Positions 1-13,337 of a stretch of DNA of 26,770 bases are shown one piece after another. The stretch comes from a virus (taxonomy: Duplodnaviria; Caudoviricetes): the IMG/VR virus record IMGVR_UViG_3300033516_000054, positions 1-26,770 of that record. The stretch is one strand, 5' to 3'. Position 1 is the stretch's first letter. Every line of letters starts with the position of its first letter. The notes beneath the pieces are model-generated. The model searched no databases. It was not told where the DNA came from and saw only the letters and a list, made by a program, of their open reading frames with translations. The translations under genes were made by a program, and so were the position numbers.

Positions 1-100
1 GGGTGGGTGGGACAACTGGGTTGACGGGGGTGGTGGTACCCTTAAGTCCCCCAGTTTTTGGAAATCCAATTTTTGAAATCTCTGTAACGTATGTTACGCA
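1..100. other. G-rich/T-tract non-coding region upstream of terminase genes; candidate packaging-initiation (pac/terminus) region
   Basis: GGGTGGGTGGGACAACTGGG (1-20), GGGGG (26-30), repeated TTTTTG(G)AAATC (55-66, 70-80) and near-palindrome GTAACGTATGTTAC (84-97). Lies directly before the putative terS. Function is inferred. Confidence 0.35.
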
Positions 101-110
101 CTAAAAAGAG

Positions 111-140
111 TTAGCATGTTTCACGTGAAACATCTATACT
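111..140 (+). promoter_or_regulatory. Putative sigma70-type promoter with parS in its spacer
   Basis: TTAGCA (111-116), 18-nt spacer, TATACT (135-140). Confidence 0.4.
117..132. promoter_or_regulatory. parS: parS centromere-like site (ParB/Spo0J binding), perfect consensus
   Basis: Exact 16-bp palindrome TGTTTCACGTGAAACA, the widely conserved chromosomal parS consensus; extends to 18 bp with A116/T133. Confidence 0.85.
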
Positions 141-162
141 GGCACCGCGTTCTCTCCTTTGA

Positions 163-191
163 ACCCCGCCTAATCCGTGGGGTCTTTTTTC
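163..191 (+). terminator. Intrinsic terminator-like hairpin immediately before terS
   Basis: ACCCCGC-CTAATCC-GTGGGGT followed by C and T7. Confidence 0.6.
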
Positions 192-192
192 A

Positions 193-591
193 ATGCAAGA
201 ACTTGACACCGCGCCGCAAACCGTAAAGCAACAGATCGCCGCTGCCGAAGCTGAGATACAGGAGATTCGCAGCCGACTGCGCTTACGACTCGCAAAAGAC
301 ATCCCTGAGGACATGAAAGAGTACCGTGATCTGGTAGACGGTACTGACGATCCTGACGACTTTAACAAGATGATCCGTCTGGAGATGGACTTACTTGGCT
401 GGGCCGCGAAGGACAAAGACAGCCAGCAGCAAACACTGCCGACATTCAACATCAACATTGACCTCTCCCGCACCGGAGGCAAAACGTTCATCGACGTGGA
501 CGCTGCCGAGGTGATTGCCACTGCAGGGATGCAGTTCACACCCAATCCAACGATAGTAGAGCTGCTCAACCTCGATATACCCGATGCTTGA
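193..591 (+). CDS. Putative terminase small subunit
   Basis: 132 aa directly upstream of and overlapping terL; helical N-part followed by a beta-strand-like FNINIDL segment. Called mainly by synteny. Confidence 0.6.
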   Translation: MQELDTAPQTVKQQIAAAEAEIQEIRSRLRLRLAKDIPEDMKEYRDLVDGTDDPDDFNKMIRLEMDLLGWAAKDKDSQQQTLPTFNINIDLSRTGGKTFIDVDAAEVIATAGMQFTPNPTIVELLNLDIPDA

Positions 592-2020
592 CTTCAAACC
601 ATCCCCGACGGCAGTGGAGTTCATGCTGTCAGAGAAGTACCTCAAACTGATCTGCGGCCCCGTTGGCGGAGGAAAGTCCACCGCTGCGCTCTTTGAGTGC
701 TTCCGACGCGCCAAGGCGCAGTCTCCGTTCAACGGGGTGCGCCGTACCAAGGTTGGAATCCTGCGAAATACGATGGCCCAGCTCAAGGCGACCGTCAAGC
801 CGCTCATAGACCAGTGGTTTGTGACTCTGGCCGGTGGACAGATGGGCCAGTGGCGTCTGACGGAGAATGTTTTTGAGATGAAGGGCATCTTGCCCGACGG
901 CACCACGCTGCACACCGAGTTCATGATGCTCGCCGCTGACTCCCCGGACGATGTGCGGCGGCTGCTCTCGCTTGAATTGAGCTTCGCGTGGGTGGAGGAG
1001 GCCCGGGAGGTGGACCCCGAGGTGTTCAGTGGACTTCAGGGTCGCGTGAACCGCTATCCGAGCCGCAAAATGGGCGGGGTTACGTGCCCCGGCGTCATCT
1101 GCTCGACCAACCCGCCGCCTCTGGGCGGGTTCTGGCATGAGTTCATGACCAATCCGACGGAGAAAACGGCTATTTTCATGCAGCCGTGTGCCCTGTTGGA
1201 CGACGGGCAGCTTAATCCTGATGCGGAGAATCTGGAGTACCTCGCCCCAGACTACTACGACAACCTCGTTTCGGGCAAAACAGAGGCTTGGATAGACGTT
1301 TACCTCAAGAACAAGTTTGGCCCGGGTGAATATGGCAACCCCGTCTACAAATCCAGCTTCAAAAGTAGCTTTCACGTAAGCAAGACGCCCCTCAAGGCGA
1401 TCATGCAGACCTTAAATCCGCTGATTATTGGCATGGATAACGGTCTGCAAGCTGCCGCAAGCATTGGGCAGCAGGATATGAGGGGTCGGGTGAACATATT
1501 GGGCGAGTGTTACGTGCCGTCTGACCAGACGATGGGGGTGGAAACGTACCTAGATAGGCTGTTAATACCGAAATTACGGGGTGATTTTGCTCAAATTCGG
1601 CCTGAAAACATCGTTTTTGTGGTCGATCCGGCGTGTTTTGTGCGCTCTCAGGTGGACGAAAAGACCATCGCACAGGCCATTTCTGCACGTGGTTTTAAGG
1701 TGATTCGGGCCACAACCAACGATCCAGAGCGTCGAATTGGGGCTGTGGAGGGGCTTTTGACCCGTCAAATCGACGGTGGCCCTGCGTTTTTGATTGATCC
1801 TAGCTGCACACACACCATAAACGGCTTTGAGTGGGGCTACCGGTTCAAGAAATCGACCGCTGCAACAGGGCCGACAGTGGCTGAGAAGAACCACTTCAGT
1901 CACTTGGCTGACGGGGTGCAGTACCTAGCGCTACACTACAACCTTGCACTGAACGGTGGCGGGTACAACCAGCGAAAAGCTGCGCAGCCCATAAGTCGAA
2001 CGAAGTATGTTTACGCGTAA
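584..2020 (+). CDS. terL: Terminase large subunit
   Basis: Walker A GPVGGGKST, Walker B FAWVEE, coupling motif STNP, RNase H-like nuclease acidic motifs (IGMDNG, VVDPA, HLADGVQY). Confidence 0.95.
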   Translation: MLDFKPSPTAVEFMLSEKYLKLICGPVGGGKSTAALFECFRRAKAQSPFNGVRRTKVGILRNTMAQLKATVKPLIDQWFVTLAGGQMGQWRLTENVFEMKGILPDGTTLHTEFMMLAADSPDDVRRLLSLELSFAWVEEAREVDPEVFSGLQGRVNRYPSRKMGGVTCPGVICSTNPPPLGGFWHEFMTNPTEKTAIFMQPCALLDDGQLNPDAENLEYLAPDYYDNLVSGKTEAWIDVYLKNKFGPGEYGNPVYKSSFKSSFHVSKTPLKAIMQTLNPLIIGMDNGLQAAASIGQQDMRGRVNILGECYVPSDQTMGVETYLDRLLIPKLRGDFAQIRPENIVFVVDPACFVRSQVDEKTIAQAISARGFKVIRATTNDPERRIGAVEGLLTRQIDGGPAFLIDPSCTHTINGFEWGYRFKKSTAATGPTVAEKNHFSHLADGVQYLALHYNLALNGGGYNQRKAAQPISRTKYVYA

Positions 2021-2526: not shown

Positions 2527-4695
2527 ATGCAGCCCTTCGGACTAACACCCCCCTCCGCAGGGAGTACGCCGCCTGCTGACCCGTTCCGCTTCAATACACC
2601 GTCCGGCAAAGCCCCACAATTAAATGTGGGTGGGTTTATGTCCATGAAGCCGCTCTCTACCCTGTTAGCCGAAGACGCTACGAAAGCGGCGGCAGAGCGG
2701 GCGCATGCTAACAGTCAGCAGCCGGTAGTGCAGGGTCTCGTTGAGCTTCTGCAAAAACACTGGAGCATGGCGAAACAGGCCAAGATGCAGGTTGAGCAGG
2801 AGATGCTGGAAGCCGTTCGCGCCAAGTCGGGGCGTTATTCCTCGGCTATGGAAGCCCAGCTCAAGCAGCAGGGCGGCTCTACCATCTACATGATGCTGTT
2901 CGCCACCAAGGCGCGGCAGGCTAAAGCGCTGCTAGGGGACATCATGGTGGGCTCCGGGTCCGAGAAGCCTTGGACCATATCCCCCAGCCCCAAGCCGGAA
3001 CTCCCGCCCGAGGAGATTGCCCAGATCATGCAGGGTGTTCAGTCCCTCGTGATGCAGGCCGAGATGGGCCCCACACCCATGCAGATTGACGAGATTCGCC
3101 AGTTGATGCGTGACGCCAAGGACCGCTTGGAAGACCAAGTTATGGTGCAGGCCCGGTTTGAGGCAGGACGGCTGGAAGACTCGTTGGAAGATACGCTGGT
3201 GGAGGGTAACTACCTTGAAGCCATGAACGACTTTATGGACGACATCACGACGTTCAAGACCGCGTTCATCAAGGGCCCCATCATCAGCAACAAGCCCAAG
3301 CTCAAGTGGGTACCCGGGCCGGATGGCAAGAGCACCGCGCAGGTGCAGACAGTTAAATGCCTCGACTGGGAGCGCGTTGACCCGTTCATGATGTACCCCG
3401 CTAGCTGGAGTAAGAACTGCGAAGACGGGTACCTGATCGAGCGCCACCGCCTGAGTCGCGGTTCCCTGAGCGCCATGATCGGCGTAGATGGTTACTCTGA
3501 GGATGCTATCCGCGCGGTACTCGATGCCCACGGTAACGGTGGCTTGACTGAGTGGCTGGCGATTGACTCCGCCAAAGAGAGCGCCGAGGGGCGCGACAGC
3601 GGAGCATCCCTGACAGGTAGCGAGCTGATCGACGCGTTGCAGTATTGGGGCTCGGTATCGGGCAAGATGCTGCGCGAGTGGGGCATGAAGGACATCACTG
3701 ACGACGCCAAAGAGTACCCCGTGGAGTGCTGGCTGATCGGTGAACACGTTATCAAGGCCATCATCAACCCCGACCCACTGGCCCGCCGTCCATACTATGC
3801 AGACGGTTACAACCGCATTCCCGGCGCGTTCTGGCACAACAGCCTGTACGACCTGATCCAAGACTGCGTGAACATGTGCAACGCCGCTGCGCGCGCACTG
3901 GCCAACAACCTCGGCATCTCGTCGGGCCCGCAGGTGGGGGTCAACATCGACCGCATCGCCCCGGGCGAGGACGTGTCAGAGCTGTTCCCTTGGAAAATCT
4001 GGCAGTTCAACAACGACCCGATGGGCAGTTCCGCTGCGCCTATATCGTTCTTCCAGCCGACAAGCAACGCTGCCGAGCTGATGGGCGTGTACGACAAGTT
4101 CAGCCTGATGGCCGACGAGTACAGCGGTATCCCGCGCTACATGACCGGAACCGAGGGCACACCGGGGGCGGGGCGCACAGCATCGGGCCTCTCCATGATG
4201 GTGGGTAACGCCAGCAAGGTCATCAAGTCGCTGGTATCCAGCCTTGACCTGCACATCACCACGCCCGTCCTGAACCGCCTGTTCGACTTCAAGATGCAGT
4301 ACGAGCCGGGGTTTGACTTCCGGGGTGACCTGAACATCGTAGCCCGTGGCGCGTTGAGCTTGCAGGTGAAAGAGGCGGCAACGCAGGCCCGCATGCAATT
4401 TTTACAGGCTACCGCAAACCCGATGGACATGCAGATTGTTGGCATCGAGGGCCGGGCGTCCGTCCTGCGCGAAGTTGCTCGCGGGCTCAACATGAACACC
4501 GACAGCGTTGTACCGAGCATCAGCGCATTCAAGCTCAAGCAGATGCAAGCCATGCAGGCCCAGATGCAACAAGCCGAGCTGCAGCAAGCACAAGGCCCGG
4601 CACCACAGAACGGCAACGGAGCAGGCCCGCAGTCAGGTCAAGTCCTGATGAACGGCGCGCCCCAGACCGATAACTTCAGCCCACAGCCAGCTTAG
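2527..4695 (+). CDS. Portal protein (podovirus type); start may be a later ATG (2638/2644)
   Basis: 722 aa after terL; ERVDPF, YLIERH and ADEYSGIPRY segments and a Gln-rich C-terminal coiled tail typical of podoviral portals. Confidence 0.9.
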   Translation: MQPFGLTPPSAGSTPPADPFRFNTPSGKAPQLNVGGFMSMKPLSTLLAEDATKAAAERAHANSQQPVVQGLVELLQKHWSMAKQAKMQVEQEMLEAVRAKSGRYSSAMEAQLKQQGGSTIYMMLFATKARQAKALLGDIMVGSGSEKPWTISPSPKPELPPEEIAQIMQGVQSLVMQAEMGPTPMQIDEIRQLMRDAKDRLEDQVMVQARFEAGRLEDSLEDTLVEGNYLEAMNDFMDDITTFKTAFIKGPIISNKPKLKWVPGPDGKSTAQVQTVKCLDWERVDPFMMYPASWSKNCEDGYLIERHRLSRGSLSAMIGVDGYSEDAIRAVLDAHGNGGLTEWLAIDSAKESAEGRDSGASLTGSELIDALQYWGSVSGKMLREWGMKDITDDAKEYPVECWLIGEHVIKAIINPDPLARRPYYADGYNRIPGAFWHNSLYDLIQDCVNMCNAAARALANNLGISSGPQVGVNIDRIAPGEDVSELFPWKIWQFNNDPMGSSAAPISFFQPTSNAAELMGVYDKFSLMADEYSGIPRYMTGTEGTPGAGRTASGLSMMVGNASKVIKSLVSSLDLHITTPVLNRLFDFKMQYEPGFDFRGDLNIVARGALSLQVKEAATQARMQFLQATANPMDMQIVGIEGRASVLREVARGLNMNTDSVVPSISAFKLKQMQAMQAQMQQAELQQAQGPAPQNGNGAGPQSGQVLMNGAPQTDNFSPQPA

Positions 4696-5075: not shown

Positions 5076-5091
5076 TGCTAACCCGTTAGCA
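5076..5091. promoter_or_regulatory. 16-bp palindromic motif copy 3 (TGCTAACCCGTTAGCA) overlapping a putative promoter
   Basis: Perfect 7-bp arms; TTGCTA (5075-5080), 17-nt spacer, TATATA (5098-5103) with extended -10 TG. Confidence 0.75.
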
Positions 5092-5388: not shown

Positions 5389-5892
5389 ATGACTGAGCCA
5401 ATTTTAACCCCAGATGAGATACGTGAGTTGTTTAGCTACGACCCAGAGACGGGCTTGCTATCGTGGGCCAAGCAAGGCAGAGGCCGAGTAGTTGGAAAAC
5501 CACTAACCTGCCGCACGGTCGAAGGTTACGTGATCGTTAGGGTGCACGGTAGAGCGTACATGGCGCACAGACTTATATGGGCCCACGTCCACGGGGTATC
5601 GCCAACGCTGCAAATAGACCACATAAACCAGTGCAAGCACGACAACCGTAGTAGCAACTTACGTGAAGTTAGCGATAAGCAGAACCACGAGAATATAAGC
5701 CACAACCGCAACAACACATCCGGGCGGCGAGGTGTTTCGTGGAATACCGGAAGCGAGAAGTGGCAGGTTCACATCCGGCACCACCGAAAGAGCATAAATA
5801 TCGGGCTGTTTGACAATTTAGAGCAAGCCGCCGATGCGCGAGCCGCAGCCGAGCGAAAATATTTTTCACACAGACCACTTGCTAACGCGTAA
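5389..5892 (+). CDS. Free-standing HNH homing endonuclease with C-terminal AP2-like DNA-binding domain
   Basis: AHRLIW..IDHINQCKHDNRSSNLR HNH motif; NNTSGRRGVSW..KWQVHI..IGLF..AADAR AP2 motif; GGAGG SD. Confidence 0.92.
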   Translation: MTEPILTPDEIRELFSYDPETGLLSWAKQGRGRVVGKPLTCRTVEGYVIVRVHGRAYMAHRLIWAHVHGVSPTLQIDHINQCKHDNRSSNLREVSDKQNHENISHNRNNTSGRRGVSWNTGSEKWQVHIRHHRKSINIGLFDNLEQAADARAAAERKYFSHRPLANA

Positions 5893-7401: not shown

Positions 7402-8433
7402 ATGGCAGTAACACGCAACAGTGCAGCTAACTTTCCAGTAAGCGCACCCTTTAACACCGCTACCCCAGCGTCCGGTAACTTCATCCCCTCAGTCTGGTCC
7501 GCCAAGCTGAACGCGAAGTTCTATGCCTCCACAGTGTTCGGCGAAATCGCTAACACCAACTGGCAAGGCGAGATTTCCGGCATGGGCGACAAGGTCATCA
7601 TCAACACTGCACCCACCATCACGGTCACCAACTACACAGTTGGCGGCGGCGGCTTGAACTACCAAGTTCCACAGCCTGACGTGCTGGAGATGAACATCGA
7701 CAAGGCCAAAGCTTTCGCCTTCCAGATCAACGACGTTCTGGACTATCAGGCCAAGCCTAACCTGCTGGACATGTTCTCTGCTGACGCAGCCGAGCAGATG
7801 AAGATCGCCATCGACTCCACCGTACTGTTCAACAGCATCACTTCCGCCACCGGACCTGCCGCTGCTAACATGGGTGCTACCGCTGGTGCCAAGTCTGGTG
7901 CTTACGATCTGGGTACTTCCGGTGCTCCGATCCAGATCAACGCTACCGCAGGTGACGCCTCCAACATCTTGACAAAGATTCTGCAGATGGCCTCCGTGCT
8001 GGACGAGCAAAACGTGCCTGAGTCTGATCGCTTCTTGCTGATCGACCCCGCCACCCGCGCTCTGTTGATGAACACCAACTTGGCCCAAGCCCAATTCATG
8101 GGTGATAGCCAGTCGATGGTTCGCAACGGCAAGATCGGCATGATCGACCGCTTCACTGTGTACGTGACTAACCAGTTGCCTTGGCAAGCTGCTAGCGTGT
8201 CCACATGGACATCCGCTGACGGCACCGAGACTGCTGCTTCCGGCGGTAACGTGGCATTCAAGCGCCGCGCTATCTTGGCTGGTCACAAGTCCGGTATCAC
8301 CTTCGCCAGCCAGATTACCAAGATGGAAACCATCCGTAATCCGTCAGACTTTGGGGACTATGTGAGAAGTTTGAACGTTTATGGGCATCGCGTAGTGAAG
8401 CAAGAGGCTCTGGCTCTGCTGATCGTACGTTAA
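7402..8433 (+). CDS. Major capsid protein (HK97 fold, P22 coat-like family)
   Basis: 343 aa; NFIPSVWSAKL..., GEI..GDKVII, LDEQNVP..DRFL, FGDYVRSLNVYG..V motifs; strong SD; highly biased codons. Confidence 0.92.
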   Translation: MAVTRNSAANFPVSAPFNTATPASGNFIPSVWSAKLNAKFYASTVFGEIANTNWQGEISGMGDKVIINTAPTITVTNYTVGGGGLNYQVPQPDVLEMNIDKAKAFAFQINDVLDYQAKPNLLDMFSADAAEQMKIAIDSTVLFNSITSATGPAAANMGATAGAKSGAYDLGTSGAPIQINATAGDASNILTKILQMASVLDEQNVPESDRFLLIDPATRALLMNTNLAQAQFMGDSQSMVRNGKIGMIDRFTVYVTNQLPWQAASVSTWTSADGTETAASGGNVAFKRRAILAGHKSGITFASQITKMETIRNPSDFGDYVRSLNVYGHRVVKQEALALLIVR

Positions 8434-8513: not shown

Positions 8514-9176
8514 ATGACCAACGCAAGCGGCGTCTACGTAATCAAAAACGTACAAAACGAAAAGTGCTACGTTGGTAGCGCAGTCAACTTCAGGAAACGC
8601 TGGATTCTGCACAAGTGCACCCTCCGCAAAGGGAACCACCACTCACCACACTTGCAGAACGCTTGGAACAAGTACGGCGAGGACGCTTTCGTTTTTGAGG
8701 TTCTTGAGCTAACCGAACGGGAGCAGGCGGTAAGCGCCGAGCAGCGTTGGATGGACACACTTTCCCCGGATTACAACATGAGCCCTACCGCTGGTAGCGC
8801 CCTTGGTACGAAGCACACGCCGGAATCTAAAGCTAAGATAGCCGCAGCTCACGTCGGTAAAAAACACACGGAAGCAACAAAGTTAAAGGTTTCGCTGGCG
8901 AATAAGGGTCGGAAACATAGCCCGGAGATTTGCGAGAAGAACCGATTGGCGCAGACCGGCCTAAAAAAGCCACCGCTCACCGCCGCCCATAAAGCCCGTA
9001 TGTCCGAGATAGCATCCGCCCGCCGTAGGGGCCCACACTCCGAAGAAACCAAAGCAAAGATGTCCGCAACCCAGAAAGGCCGGGTATTTTCCGAAGAAAC
9101 TAGGCGGAAGATGTCAGAAGCCGCTATTCGACGCCGCGCTGCGAAAGTTACACAGCCTATTGTTGCTAACGCGTAA
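8514..9176 (+). CDS. Free-standing GIY-YIG homing endonuclease with NUMOD3 repeats
   Basis: SGVYVI..YVGSA..RW..H GIY-YIG core; repeated H(S/T)xE(T/S)KxK(M/I)S NUMOD3-type motifs. Confidence 0.93.
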   Translation: MTNASGVYVIKNVQNEKCYVGSAVNFRKRWILHKCTLRKGNHHSPHLQNAWNKYGEDAFVFEVLELTEREQAVSAEQRWMDTLSPDYNMSPTAGSALGTKHTPESKAKIAAAHVGKKHTEATKLKVSLANKGRKHSPEICEKNRLAQTGLKKPPLTAAHKARMSEIASARRRGPHSEETKAKMSATQKGRVFSEETRRKMSEAAIRRRAAKVTQPIVANA

Positions 9177-11990: not shown

Positions 11991-13337
11991 ATGAATAAAG
12001 GTACCTACGGCTATCCGTTACCTCCTAACGCTCCTACTCGGGTTGCTCCTTCTACGTGGCTTAATGCCCGTGAGTTTTTAACTCCGGGGGCGTTCTCTTT
12101 CACCGTCCCGCAGAACGTCTACCAGATTTACTTTTTCGCAGGCGGTGGTGGTGGAGGCGGCGGAACTATTGGCACCGGACAGTCGATTGGGTCTCCCGGA
12201 GGCGGGGGTGGGGGCAGTGCGGAGGGCATCATTGACGTTACTCCCGGACAAGTTGTTGCGGGCATAGTTGGCGCGGCGGGCACCGCAGGCGGCGGAGCAG
12301 GTGGGACCACATCTATCGGTTCTTTGGTTTCTTGCACAGGTGGCAGTGGTGGACCCGCCGGTCTAGCAAACCTATCGACACTTAATCCCGGAGGTGCTGG
12401 CGGAACTGCCTCGGCGTCTGCCTCTTTGCGCGGACTAATTACCCGCACGGGAGGAGCAGGCGGTAGTACTAAACAGACCATAAATGGCAATGATGCTGGC
12501 GGCGGCGGCGGCGGGCTTAGTGGAGTCGGCGGCAGTACAGAATCTACGGGCAGTTCCAATAATGCTGGCGGCGGCGGCGGTGGTATGTTTGGCAACGGAG
12601 GGAGTAGCACCGCTGCAGTTGCAACTACGGGGGGTTGTGGTGGTGGTGGCATGTTTGGTAACGGGGGCAGCGTTGCTGGAGCAGGGGCTTCCAGCACTGG
12701 CGGCGGCGGTGGTGGTGGTTTTTACGGCAACGGAGGCAGTAGCGGTGCTGGGGGCCCTACAAGTACAGGTGGGGGAGGCGGAGGGGCTACTAGCAATGGC
12801 GGGCCTGCTATAACAGGAACTCCAACCGCTACTTCCTACACTGGGTCTGGTGGAGGCCCATTCGGCGGCAATGGAGGGACTACGACCGTACCCGCACAAA
12901 GCGGCGGGGGTGGCAACATGCCTCCCGCAGCAACGCAATCTTTACTTTACATCAACCGTGTAACTCCTAACGGCGGGGGTGGAGGTGGGTCATGTACTAG
13001 CATTGGCGCGGGTAGTGGCGGTTTTGGTGGCGGTGGCGGCGGTTCCTCCCCCTCTGTGTCCGCAGGGTCTGGTGGGTACGGTGGCGGTGGCGGTGGCGGC
13101 GGTGCGACAGGCGGGCAACTCGGCGGTAACGGCGGCTTTGGCGGTGGTGGCGGTGCTGGCGGTAGAGGTGGCTTTGGTGGTGGTGGTGGCGGCAGTTGCG
13201 GTTCCGCCACTGTGACTGCGAACAGCGGCGCTGGTGGTGCTGGCGGCGGAGGAGGTGGCGGTAGTTCAGGTGTGGGCGCAGGCCCCTCCGTTGGCGGCGC
13301 GGGCTTCGTAGTCTTTGCATGGACGGAAGGATACTAA
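11991..13337 (+). CDS. Glycine-rich tail adhesin-like protein (polyglycine repeats)
   Basis: 448 aa; F.TPGAFSFTVP..V....GGGGG N-terminus; many Gly runs and GG(M/F)(F/Y)GNGGS repeats; C-terminal G.GFVVFAW. Confidence 0.8.
   Translation: MNKGTYGYPLPPNAPTRVAPSTWLNAREFLTPGAFSFTVPQNVYQIYFFAGGGGGGGGTIGTGQSIGSPGGGGGGSAEGIIDVTPGQVVAGIVGAAGTAGGGAGGTTSIGSLVSCTGGSGGPAGLANLSTLNPGGAGGTASASASLRGLITRTGGAGGSTKQTINGNDAGGGGGGLSGVGGSTESTGSSNNAGGGGGGMFGNGGSSTAAVATTGGCGGGGMFGNGGSVAGAGASSTGGGGGGGFYGNGGSSGAGGPTSTGGGGGGATSNGGPAITGTPTATSYTGSGGGPFGGNGGTTTVPAQSGGGGNMPPAATQSLLYINRVTPNGGGGGGSCTSIGAGSGGFGGGGGGSSPSVSAGSGGYGGGGGGGGATGGQLGGNGGFGGGGGAGGRGGFGGGGGGSCGSATVTANSGAGGAGGGGGGGSSGVGAGPSVGGAGFVVFAWTEGY

Follow-up and report, generated by a model that had tools for sequence, protein, structure and literature searches.

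Phage-plasmids such as P1 (ParABS) and N15 (SopABC) encode their own ParA and ParB together with their own centromere sequence. The Bacillus phages phi29 and Nf bear host-type parS sites that are read by the host protein Spo0J/ParB (PMC2731898; Meijer et al. 2005 as cited there and in PMC9437464). The phi29 precedent invoked for the present locus by an earlier, sequence-only reading is real, Spo0J segregating phi29 DNA through parS (PMC2731898), and in the phi29-like phages this use of host ParB serves spore entrapment. Within the open-access literature we found the use of host ParB by a phage described only for phi29-like Bacillus phages, and no survey of host parS sites in phages was found there. 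Phages are also known to co-opt host regulators, as in the "lytic deferment" governed by CtrA and in the use of Spo0A boxes (PMC9437464).

We analyzed a window of 26,770 nucleotides from an uncultured tailed phage, the whole of a linear IMG/VR record (G000) that is about 45% complete, which carries one chromosomal-type parS over the predicted first promoter of its late arm. As with the phage-plasmid cassettes, a centromere is found on a phage that is probably temperate, but no ParA or ParB was found in the window. Like phi29 and Nf, it has a chromosomal parS on its genome, no phage partition genes were found, and reliance on host ParB is presumed; unlike them, it has its site at a conserved junction, across a predicted late promoter, and possesses a terminase; genes for PolA and an integrase are present in its sister. 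Whereas phi29 has five parS sites, the window, the sister genome G001 and the distant genome G006 have one each. Spore entrapment would not apply here, since the host is probably a non-sporulating proteobacterium. The 16-mer is identical to that of chromosomal ParABS-SMC centromeres, and the variants in relatives are confined to a tolerated position (PMC5450999, PMC7022226), but the window site lies singly on phage DNA with no parAB operon or origin nearby. In common with parS3 and parS4 of Pseudomonas aeruginosa, it stands at a promoter that ParB could repress (PMC5521831); here, however, the site takes up the spacer predicted for a phage promoter, at which repression is, by analogy, a candidate function. 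That phage promoters contain the site of a DNA-binding protein of the host, acquired patchily across lineages, recalls the CtrA and Spo0A cases (PMC9437464), although ParB is a sliding clamp for segregation and not a classical transcription factor.

Results

Positions 117 to 132 of the window read TGTTTCACGTGAAACA, an exact 16/16 copy of the chromosomal-type parS and a predicted loading site for host ParB, to which no strand is assigned; the surrounding palindrome reaches 18 bp (116 to 133). The site matches the canonical chromosomal consensus (PMC5450999), in agreement with the earlier identification of the 16-mer as the ParB/Spo0J site, and a scan of the whole 26.8-kb window at up to three mismatches returned it as the sole match. 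Exact copies expected per 26.8 kb number 3e-6 from base composition and 4e-6 from an order-2 Markov model, so that chance is negligible, as had been claimed; the probability that any particular 400-bp stretch contains a site with no more than one mismatch is about 1e-5. The contig end lies 117 bp away on one side, and on the other 60 bp separate the end of parS from the ATG of the putative terS at 193.

The rest of the window is a packaging and virion arm with genes for TerL, a portal, the major head protein, a tail fibre, an endolysin and internal virion proteins; no tape-measure or tail-tube match was found in it. The putative small terminase (132 aa; 193 to 591, plus strand) has no PHROG match, a protein search finds only itself, and Atlas searches give weak leads to small-terminase clusters; the claim that parS stands about 60 bp upstream of terS holds for the distance, the gene being labeled by position and size only. 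The large terminase (584 to 2020, plus strand) matches phrog_2 (E 1e-17), and its closest cultured matches, in phages BcepC6B, RHph_TM and Rollin, are 34 to 38% identical. The portal or head-tail connector gene (2527 to 4695, plus strand) was used for the phylogenetic tree.

Bases 1 to 83 (plus strand) form a conserved G-rich junction of the pattern GGG..TGGGACAA..CTTA..CAATTTTT, which aligns with junctions in L211, L222, L216, L294 and L220; TGGGACAA is invariant in all six, the five relatives having been chosen because they contain the motif. A scan for the junction pattern returned 15 loci, among which the L211 contig was the sole relative. In L211 the junction (7420 to 7500) has the reverse-strand early arm on one side and the late arm on the other, and in the window it lies directly upstream of the late arm. 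Ten of the 53 loci, counted before dereplication, whose contigs end at most 4.9 kb upstream of terL do so 500 to 750 bp from it, and the contigs of L228, L201, L003, L191 and L221 were read by eye as beginning inside the junction. The junction is a candidate genome end, pac region or hard-to-sequence structure; the suggestion that parS masks a pac site is unsupported, no pac site having been located. To judge from the sequence comparisons, parS lies on phage DNA, because bases 1 to 83 align with the junction of five phage relatives, because the leader at 135 to 190 has counterparts in L241 and L216, and because the 45-kb contig of the sister has phage genes to the left and right of its parS. 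A chromosomal centromere would be expected near oriC and parAB; the flanks here are the phage junction and terminase genes, and no par genes were found in the window.

The distribution of the site was examined in 91 TerL-related loci, dereplicated to 54 relatives (at least 45% TerL identity, 350 bp upstream). Among the 53 relatives with at least 500 bp upstream, one carries, in the 3 kb upstream of terL, a parS that departs from the consensus at no more than one base, the best upstream site in the other 52 being no better than four mismatches; restricting the set to those with 2.4 kb or more of upstream sequence leaves 1 of 29. The sole carrier, L211, is the window's sister on the portal tree (SH-aLRT 98; portal about 80% identical), which has 46 rows and comes from a quick IQ-TREE search with no bootstrap. 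Its site (7687 to 7702), the only one in its 45-kb record, matches at 15/16 (A16T). It belongs to the promoter that comes first behind the shared junction and lies across the -35/spacer of a predicted extended -10 (TGnTAGTAT), from whose end to the initial ATG of the late arm there are 6 nt. A stretch of small genes, about 1.9 kb long, lies between this site and terS, and by blastn the parS flanks of the window and L211 give no alignment. L213 is 99% identical to L211, yet its contig starts downstream of the site. The site was found in one of five records; the relatives next in line, among them the complete genome G002 of the next clade, have none. No species-level relatives were found, the best TerL being 69% and the best portal about 80% identical; the portal search gave 22 loci, 18 of which were scanned for parS.

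In a distant pair that the portal search added, L305 and L308 (TerL 28%), a 15/16 parS follows a similar G-rich/T-rich junction and immediately precedes the first gene's ribosome-binding site; parS and ribosome-binding site form an identical 36-bp block from which the flanks diverge. All deviations from the consensus fall at position 16 (A16T in L211, A16G in L305 and L308), in two independent lineages only, and the ParB of Burkholderia chromosome 1 tolerates changes only at positions 1/16 and 5/12 (PMC5450999). The site is patchy and lineage-specific, yet kept where present. Family-wide conservation is rejected (1/53), and parS is not a family feature, since 52 of 53 relatives lack it upstream of terL; the positional conservation upstream of terS that the sequence-only reading proposed to check holds at the matching promoter of the nearest relative and fails in the other 52. 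Three two-mismatch sites far from terS (L196/L222, L226 and L269) were treated as chance.

The promoter proposed for the packaging genes, TTAGCA (111 to 116), an 18-nt spacer and TATACT (135 to 140, plus strand), is the sole sigma70-like call in positions 1 to 700, and taken alone the call is weak (9/12 matches; 0.2 +/- 0.5 expected in shuffles). parS takes up 16 of the 18 spacer bases and ends 2 nt upstream of the predicted -10. The elements of the proposed architecture are present, and TATACT, as the predicted -10 of the first late-arm promoter, is backed by L241 and L216, where a similar -10 and leader occur, but TTAGCA is doubtful as a -35 since it overlaps GTTAGC (110 to 115, plus strand), the right half-site of a palindrome, CTWAC-NN-GTWAG, that recurs in this phage family.

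This palindrome occurs 108 times in 646 kb (55 loci), versus once for a swapped control, and is present in 33 of the 55 loci. The window has six exact copies, all intergenic and without assigned strand (2512 to 2523, the others starting at 5078, 5882, 8443, 9166 and 17860); a one-mismatch copy lies at 2010, and L211 has copies at 7701, 14940, 15196 and 17688. In 28 of the 108 copies the palindrome stops 1 to 8 nt short of a -10-like hexamer, and 25 copies overlap such a hexamer, partly by construction; the palindrome is found 250 to 3,000 bp upstream of terL in 17 of the 45 loci having enough upstream DNA. Its position relative to the -10-like hexamers suggests a phage operator, and the copies are probably the operator network of a phage regulator, for which the HTH_3 gene at L287:11349-11609 is a candidate. 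In L241 the palindrome fills the slot before the -10 (TTGACA..motif-CA-TAGAAT); at the window's first promoter there is only the half-site at 110 to 115 and no intact copy, and parS, as read from the sequence, occupies the usual slot of the operator-like palindrome. By eye only about half of the defined positions of the two motifs agree, and derivation of parS from the palindrome was rejected. In L211 the two overlap by one base, which would account for the A16T change.

Downstream of the -10, positions 141 to 190 (plus strand) comprise an anti-Shine-Dalgarno-like tract (150 to 160), a GC hairpin (163 to 183; -11.3 kcal/mol) and a T run (185 to 190) whose six Ts stop 2 nt before the terS ATG, where a Shine-Dalgarno sequence is absent. 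This leader is a predicted attenuator or small RNA of about 45 nt; given the terminator-like hairpin and T run, the first promoter product would be the leader of about 45 nt, and expression of terS would need read-through. Its counterparts in L241 and L216 lie about 534 bp upstream of terL. A comparison with Rfam returned only RF02278 at 18 bits, far under its cut-off of 50, a weak, sub-threshold resemblance to a Betaproteobacteria toxic sRNA family. Elsewhere, the sequences suggest that late mRNAs are leaderless in this phage family; a -10-like hexamer was seen by eye 6 to 7 nt before the ATG in L211:7710-7722 and at the first late gene of L222, L216, L241, L254 and L239.

Searches for ParB_N, HTH_ParB and AAA_31 gave no match in any of five records (G000, G001, G002, G006 and G007), including the sister G001 (76% complete) and the complete but distant G006; the earlier observation that no parA or parB is visible in the window is borne out by domain searches, with the proviso that the record is about 45% complete. 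Nor does the locus resemble the ParABS cassette of a phage-plasmid: terS and terL lie downstream, and the sister's upstream early genes have no par family match. G006 itself carries one parS and no integrase match. Both G001 and G002 encode a tyrosine integrase, PolA, an SNF2 helicase and an HTH_3 protein, and G001 also encodes a ribbon-helix-helix-like protein; no attP was found when the sister's intergenic DNA was viewed. The window phage is probably temperate, to judge from the sister's integrase, and for the carrier state or pseudolysogeny that had been envisaged, an integrase in the nearest relatives makes true lysogeny an equally likely setting. Two TerL relatives (57% and 68%) are binned in Pigmentiphaga and Thiobacillus metagenome-assembled genomes (MAGs), the sole named bins for close relatives and both betaproteobacterial; in each of these genomes, other contigs bear clusters of sites that contain the 14-bp parS core. 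A non-sporulating proteobacterium is the probable host, the binning of phage contigs being weak evidence. Homologue searches with the integrase and endolysin yielded no organism names for host assignment.

Exact parS occurs in some 5,700 IMG/VR stretches, as estimated from two of 64 parts, compared with 39 and 21 for two control palindromes of the same composition; the site is about 150 to 270 times commoner in viral contigs than these controls, although some of its carriers may be host DNA. Among 49 of the 50 longest contigs behind 139 parS loci, 4 have a ParB_N match and 45 have none, and a terminase match (one of three families) is present in 23. parS lies at most 3 kb upstream of terL in 7 of these 23 (2.8 expected; p 0.012) and downstream in 2; p ranges from 0.012 to 0.08 over four window sizes, uncorrected, against a null of random circular shifts within each contig from which control-palindrome contigs were left out. 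Without one possibly phi29-like record, the count is 6 of 22 (p 0.024), and the bias toward positions upstream of terL is modest. Only 31 of 83 sites fall within ORFs of at least 100 aa, versus 64 for random positions, and 52 fall outside, versus about 19 expected. Sites are found at varied places in the carrier genomes. Strong -10 boxes occur 0 to 9 nt downstream of 158 random phage parS sites at 0.73% per position, barely above the background of 0.5 to 0.6%, and a general architecture among phages of parS within a promoter spacer is unsupported. A short blastn search with parS matched 299 cultured-phage records; the matches listed include the phi29 relatives Nf and B103 and phages of Gordonia, Microbacterium, Clostridium, Lactobacillus and Pseudomonas with parS-like matches. 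Also among the matches listed are the Microviridae phi-CA82, Dipodfec and bajarodino viruses, with several parS-like matches per record; such matches extend even to small single-stranded DNA phage genomes and to phages of non-sporulating Actinobacteria.

Discussion

Host ParB probably binds the window parS. For the consequence of binding, our preferred explanation, the phi29-like and most economical one, in which we place about even confidence, is that the site would load host ParB clamps onto the free phage genome and that the phage DNA would be positioned through host ParA/SMC. ParB would load at the phage parS and then spread from it in a CTP-dependent manner, and the clamps would tie the free genome to the host segregation machinery before replication or integration; the benefit would be placement of phage DNA near the origin region and its inheritance by daughter cells while lysis or integration is delayed. 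Any lowering of late-promoter activity by ParB would be a secondary effect, since parS occupies one of the rare "sequence-free" stretches that so compact a genome offers. Several lines of evidence point to ParB loading: the exact consensus, the sister's site at the matching promoter and the lack of par domains in all five records; the L305 and L308 sites after a similar junction and the confinement of deviations to position 16, which ParB tolerates; and the abundance of parS relative to controls, the 45 of 49 long carriers without ParB_N and the excess of sites outside long ORFs. The segregation of phi29 DNA by Spo0J through parS is a precedent (PMC2731898), and the varied positions of parS in carriers are what would be expected if loading anywhere is selected. 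Other observations count against this explanation. The family does without the site, since 52 of 53 relatives have none upstream of terL and the complete G002 has none at all; with an integrase, as in the sister, a phage has less need of a partition device, and the lysogen would end up with an ectopic parS in its chromosome; regulation fits equally well with the position of both sisters' parS over a promoter, in the slot of an operator-like motif; and the missing 55% of the window phage genome could encode a binder.

A role in regulation is a tentative alternative that we consider rather unlikely. Host ParB would serve as a borrowed repressor, or copy-number timer, of the first late promoter, which governs the leader RNA and terS-terL: bound over the -35/spacer, it would hold the promoter in an incoming or prophage genome until parS copies outnumber ParB coverage. 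The placing of parS 2 nt before the -10, in the slot that the family palindrome takes in L241, is as this proposal would have it, as are the 28 of 108 palindromes that end 1 to 8 nt before a -10-like hexamer, the lack of an intact palindrome at the window promoter and its one-base overlap with parS in L211; the two sisters, however, represent one evolutionary event, and -10 boxes downstream of the 158 phage sites barely exceed background. The 7 of 23 random carriers with parS at most 3 kb upstream of terL (2.8 expected) favor regulation as well, but the bias is modest and uncorrected for four window sizes, and 16 of the 23 sites are not close. ParB represses the P. aeruginosa promoters beside parS3 and parS4, but reporter repression was seen only upon ParB overproduction (PMC5521831), and loss of ParB changes transcription little in Vibrio cholerae and Streptococcus pneumoniae (PMC7022226).

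The two functions could also be joined. It is conceivable, if unlikely, that with parS in the operator slot, ParB both carries a quiet genome through division and represses the packaging genes in a DNA-counting manner; the packaging genes would be released once replication outruns the ParB pool. Were such a dual role true, the window would be one case of a widespread strategy, present on thousands of phage contigs and biased toward the terminase end, of which we found no description in the literature searched.

We regard as improbable a third proposal, that parS is a decoy with which hundreds of replicating genomes soak up ParB, so that host chromosome segregation and division stall and the phage-producing cell grows larger. 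A single site per genome would suffice, with no need of a phage protein, as is seen here, and ParB depletion blocks division in Caulobacter, but ParB is non-essential in Burkholderia (both PMC7022226), and the position at a promoter is left unexplained. Very improbable, in our judgment, is a phage-encoded reader, either an orphan ParB or an early-arm repressor, with the match to parS being incidental or the system self-contained. The window record is only 45% complete and lacks the early arm, the sister encodes HTH_3 and ribbon-helix-helix-like proteins, and 4 of 49 random carriers have a ParB_N match; on the other hand, the repeated motif of the family is a different 12-mer, a ParB domain was found neither in the sister (76% complete) nor in G006, which is complete, and the deviations in parS follow the tolerance of host ParB. 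That positions 1 to 190 come from the origin region of a host or from a chimeric end of the contig, an outcome that the sequence-only reading recognized as fatal to its case, or that the match arose by chance (about 4e-6), is exceedingly improbable: parS is only 117 bp from the contig end, but a host or chimeric origin is contradicted by the junction alignment with five phage relatives, the leader counterparts in L241 and L216 and the contig breaks of relatives, and the sister's parS is internal to a 45-kb contig and flanked by phage genes.

The presumed loading of host ParB onto phage DNA raises the general question of what phages gain from a host centromere clamp, be it partition, SMC loading, the timing of late genes or sabotage of segregation, and the abundance of parS, together with its cultured-phage carriers, makes the question testable in laboratory strains. 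A caution also follows for metagenomics, in that a parS on a contig does not mark host origin DNA.

Other features of these genomes lie apart from the parS locus. The head module of the window contains free-standing homing endonuclease genes of HNH/AP2 type and GIY-YIG type (5389 to 5892 and 8514 to 9176), both preceded by an operator-like palindrome region and a hairpin, and a very glycine-rich ORF of 448 aa (11991 to 13337) lies among the tail-fibre genes. In L242, upstream of the TerL match, terL seems to be split after its N-terminal motif by an insertion resembling an intein or an intron-borne endonuclease. In the internal virion region of G002, L288:432-4589 encodes a large polyvalent protein with LPD39 and a sub-threshold match to the ART-PolyVal ADP-ribosyltransferase.
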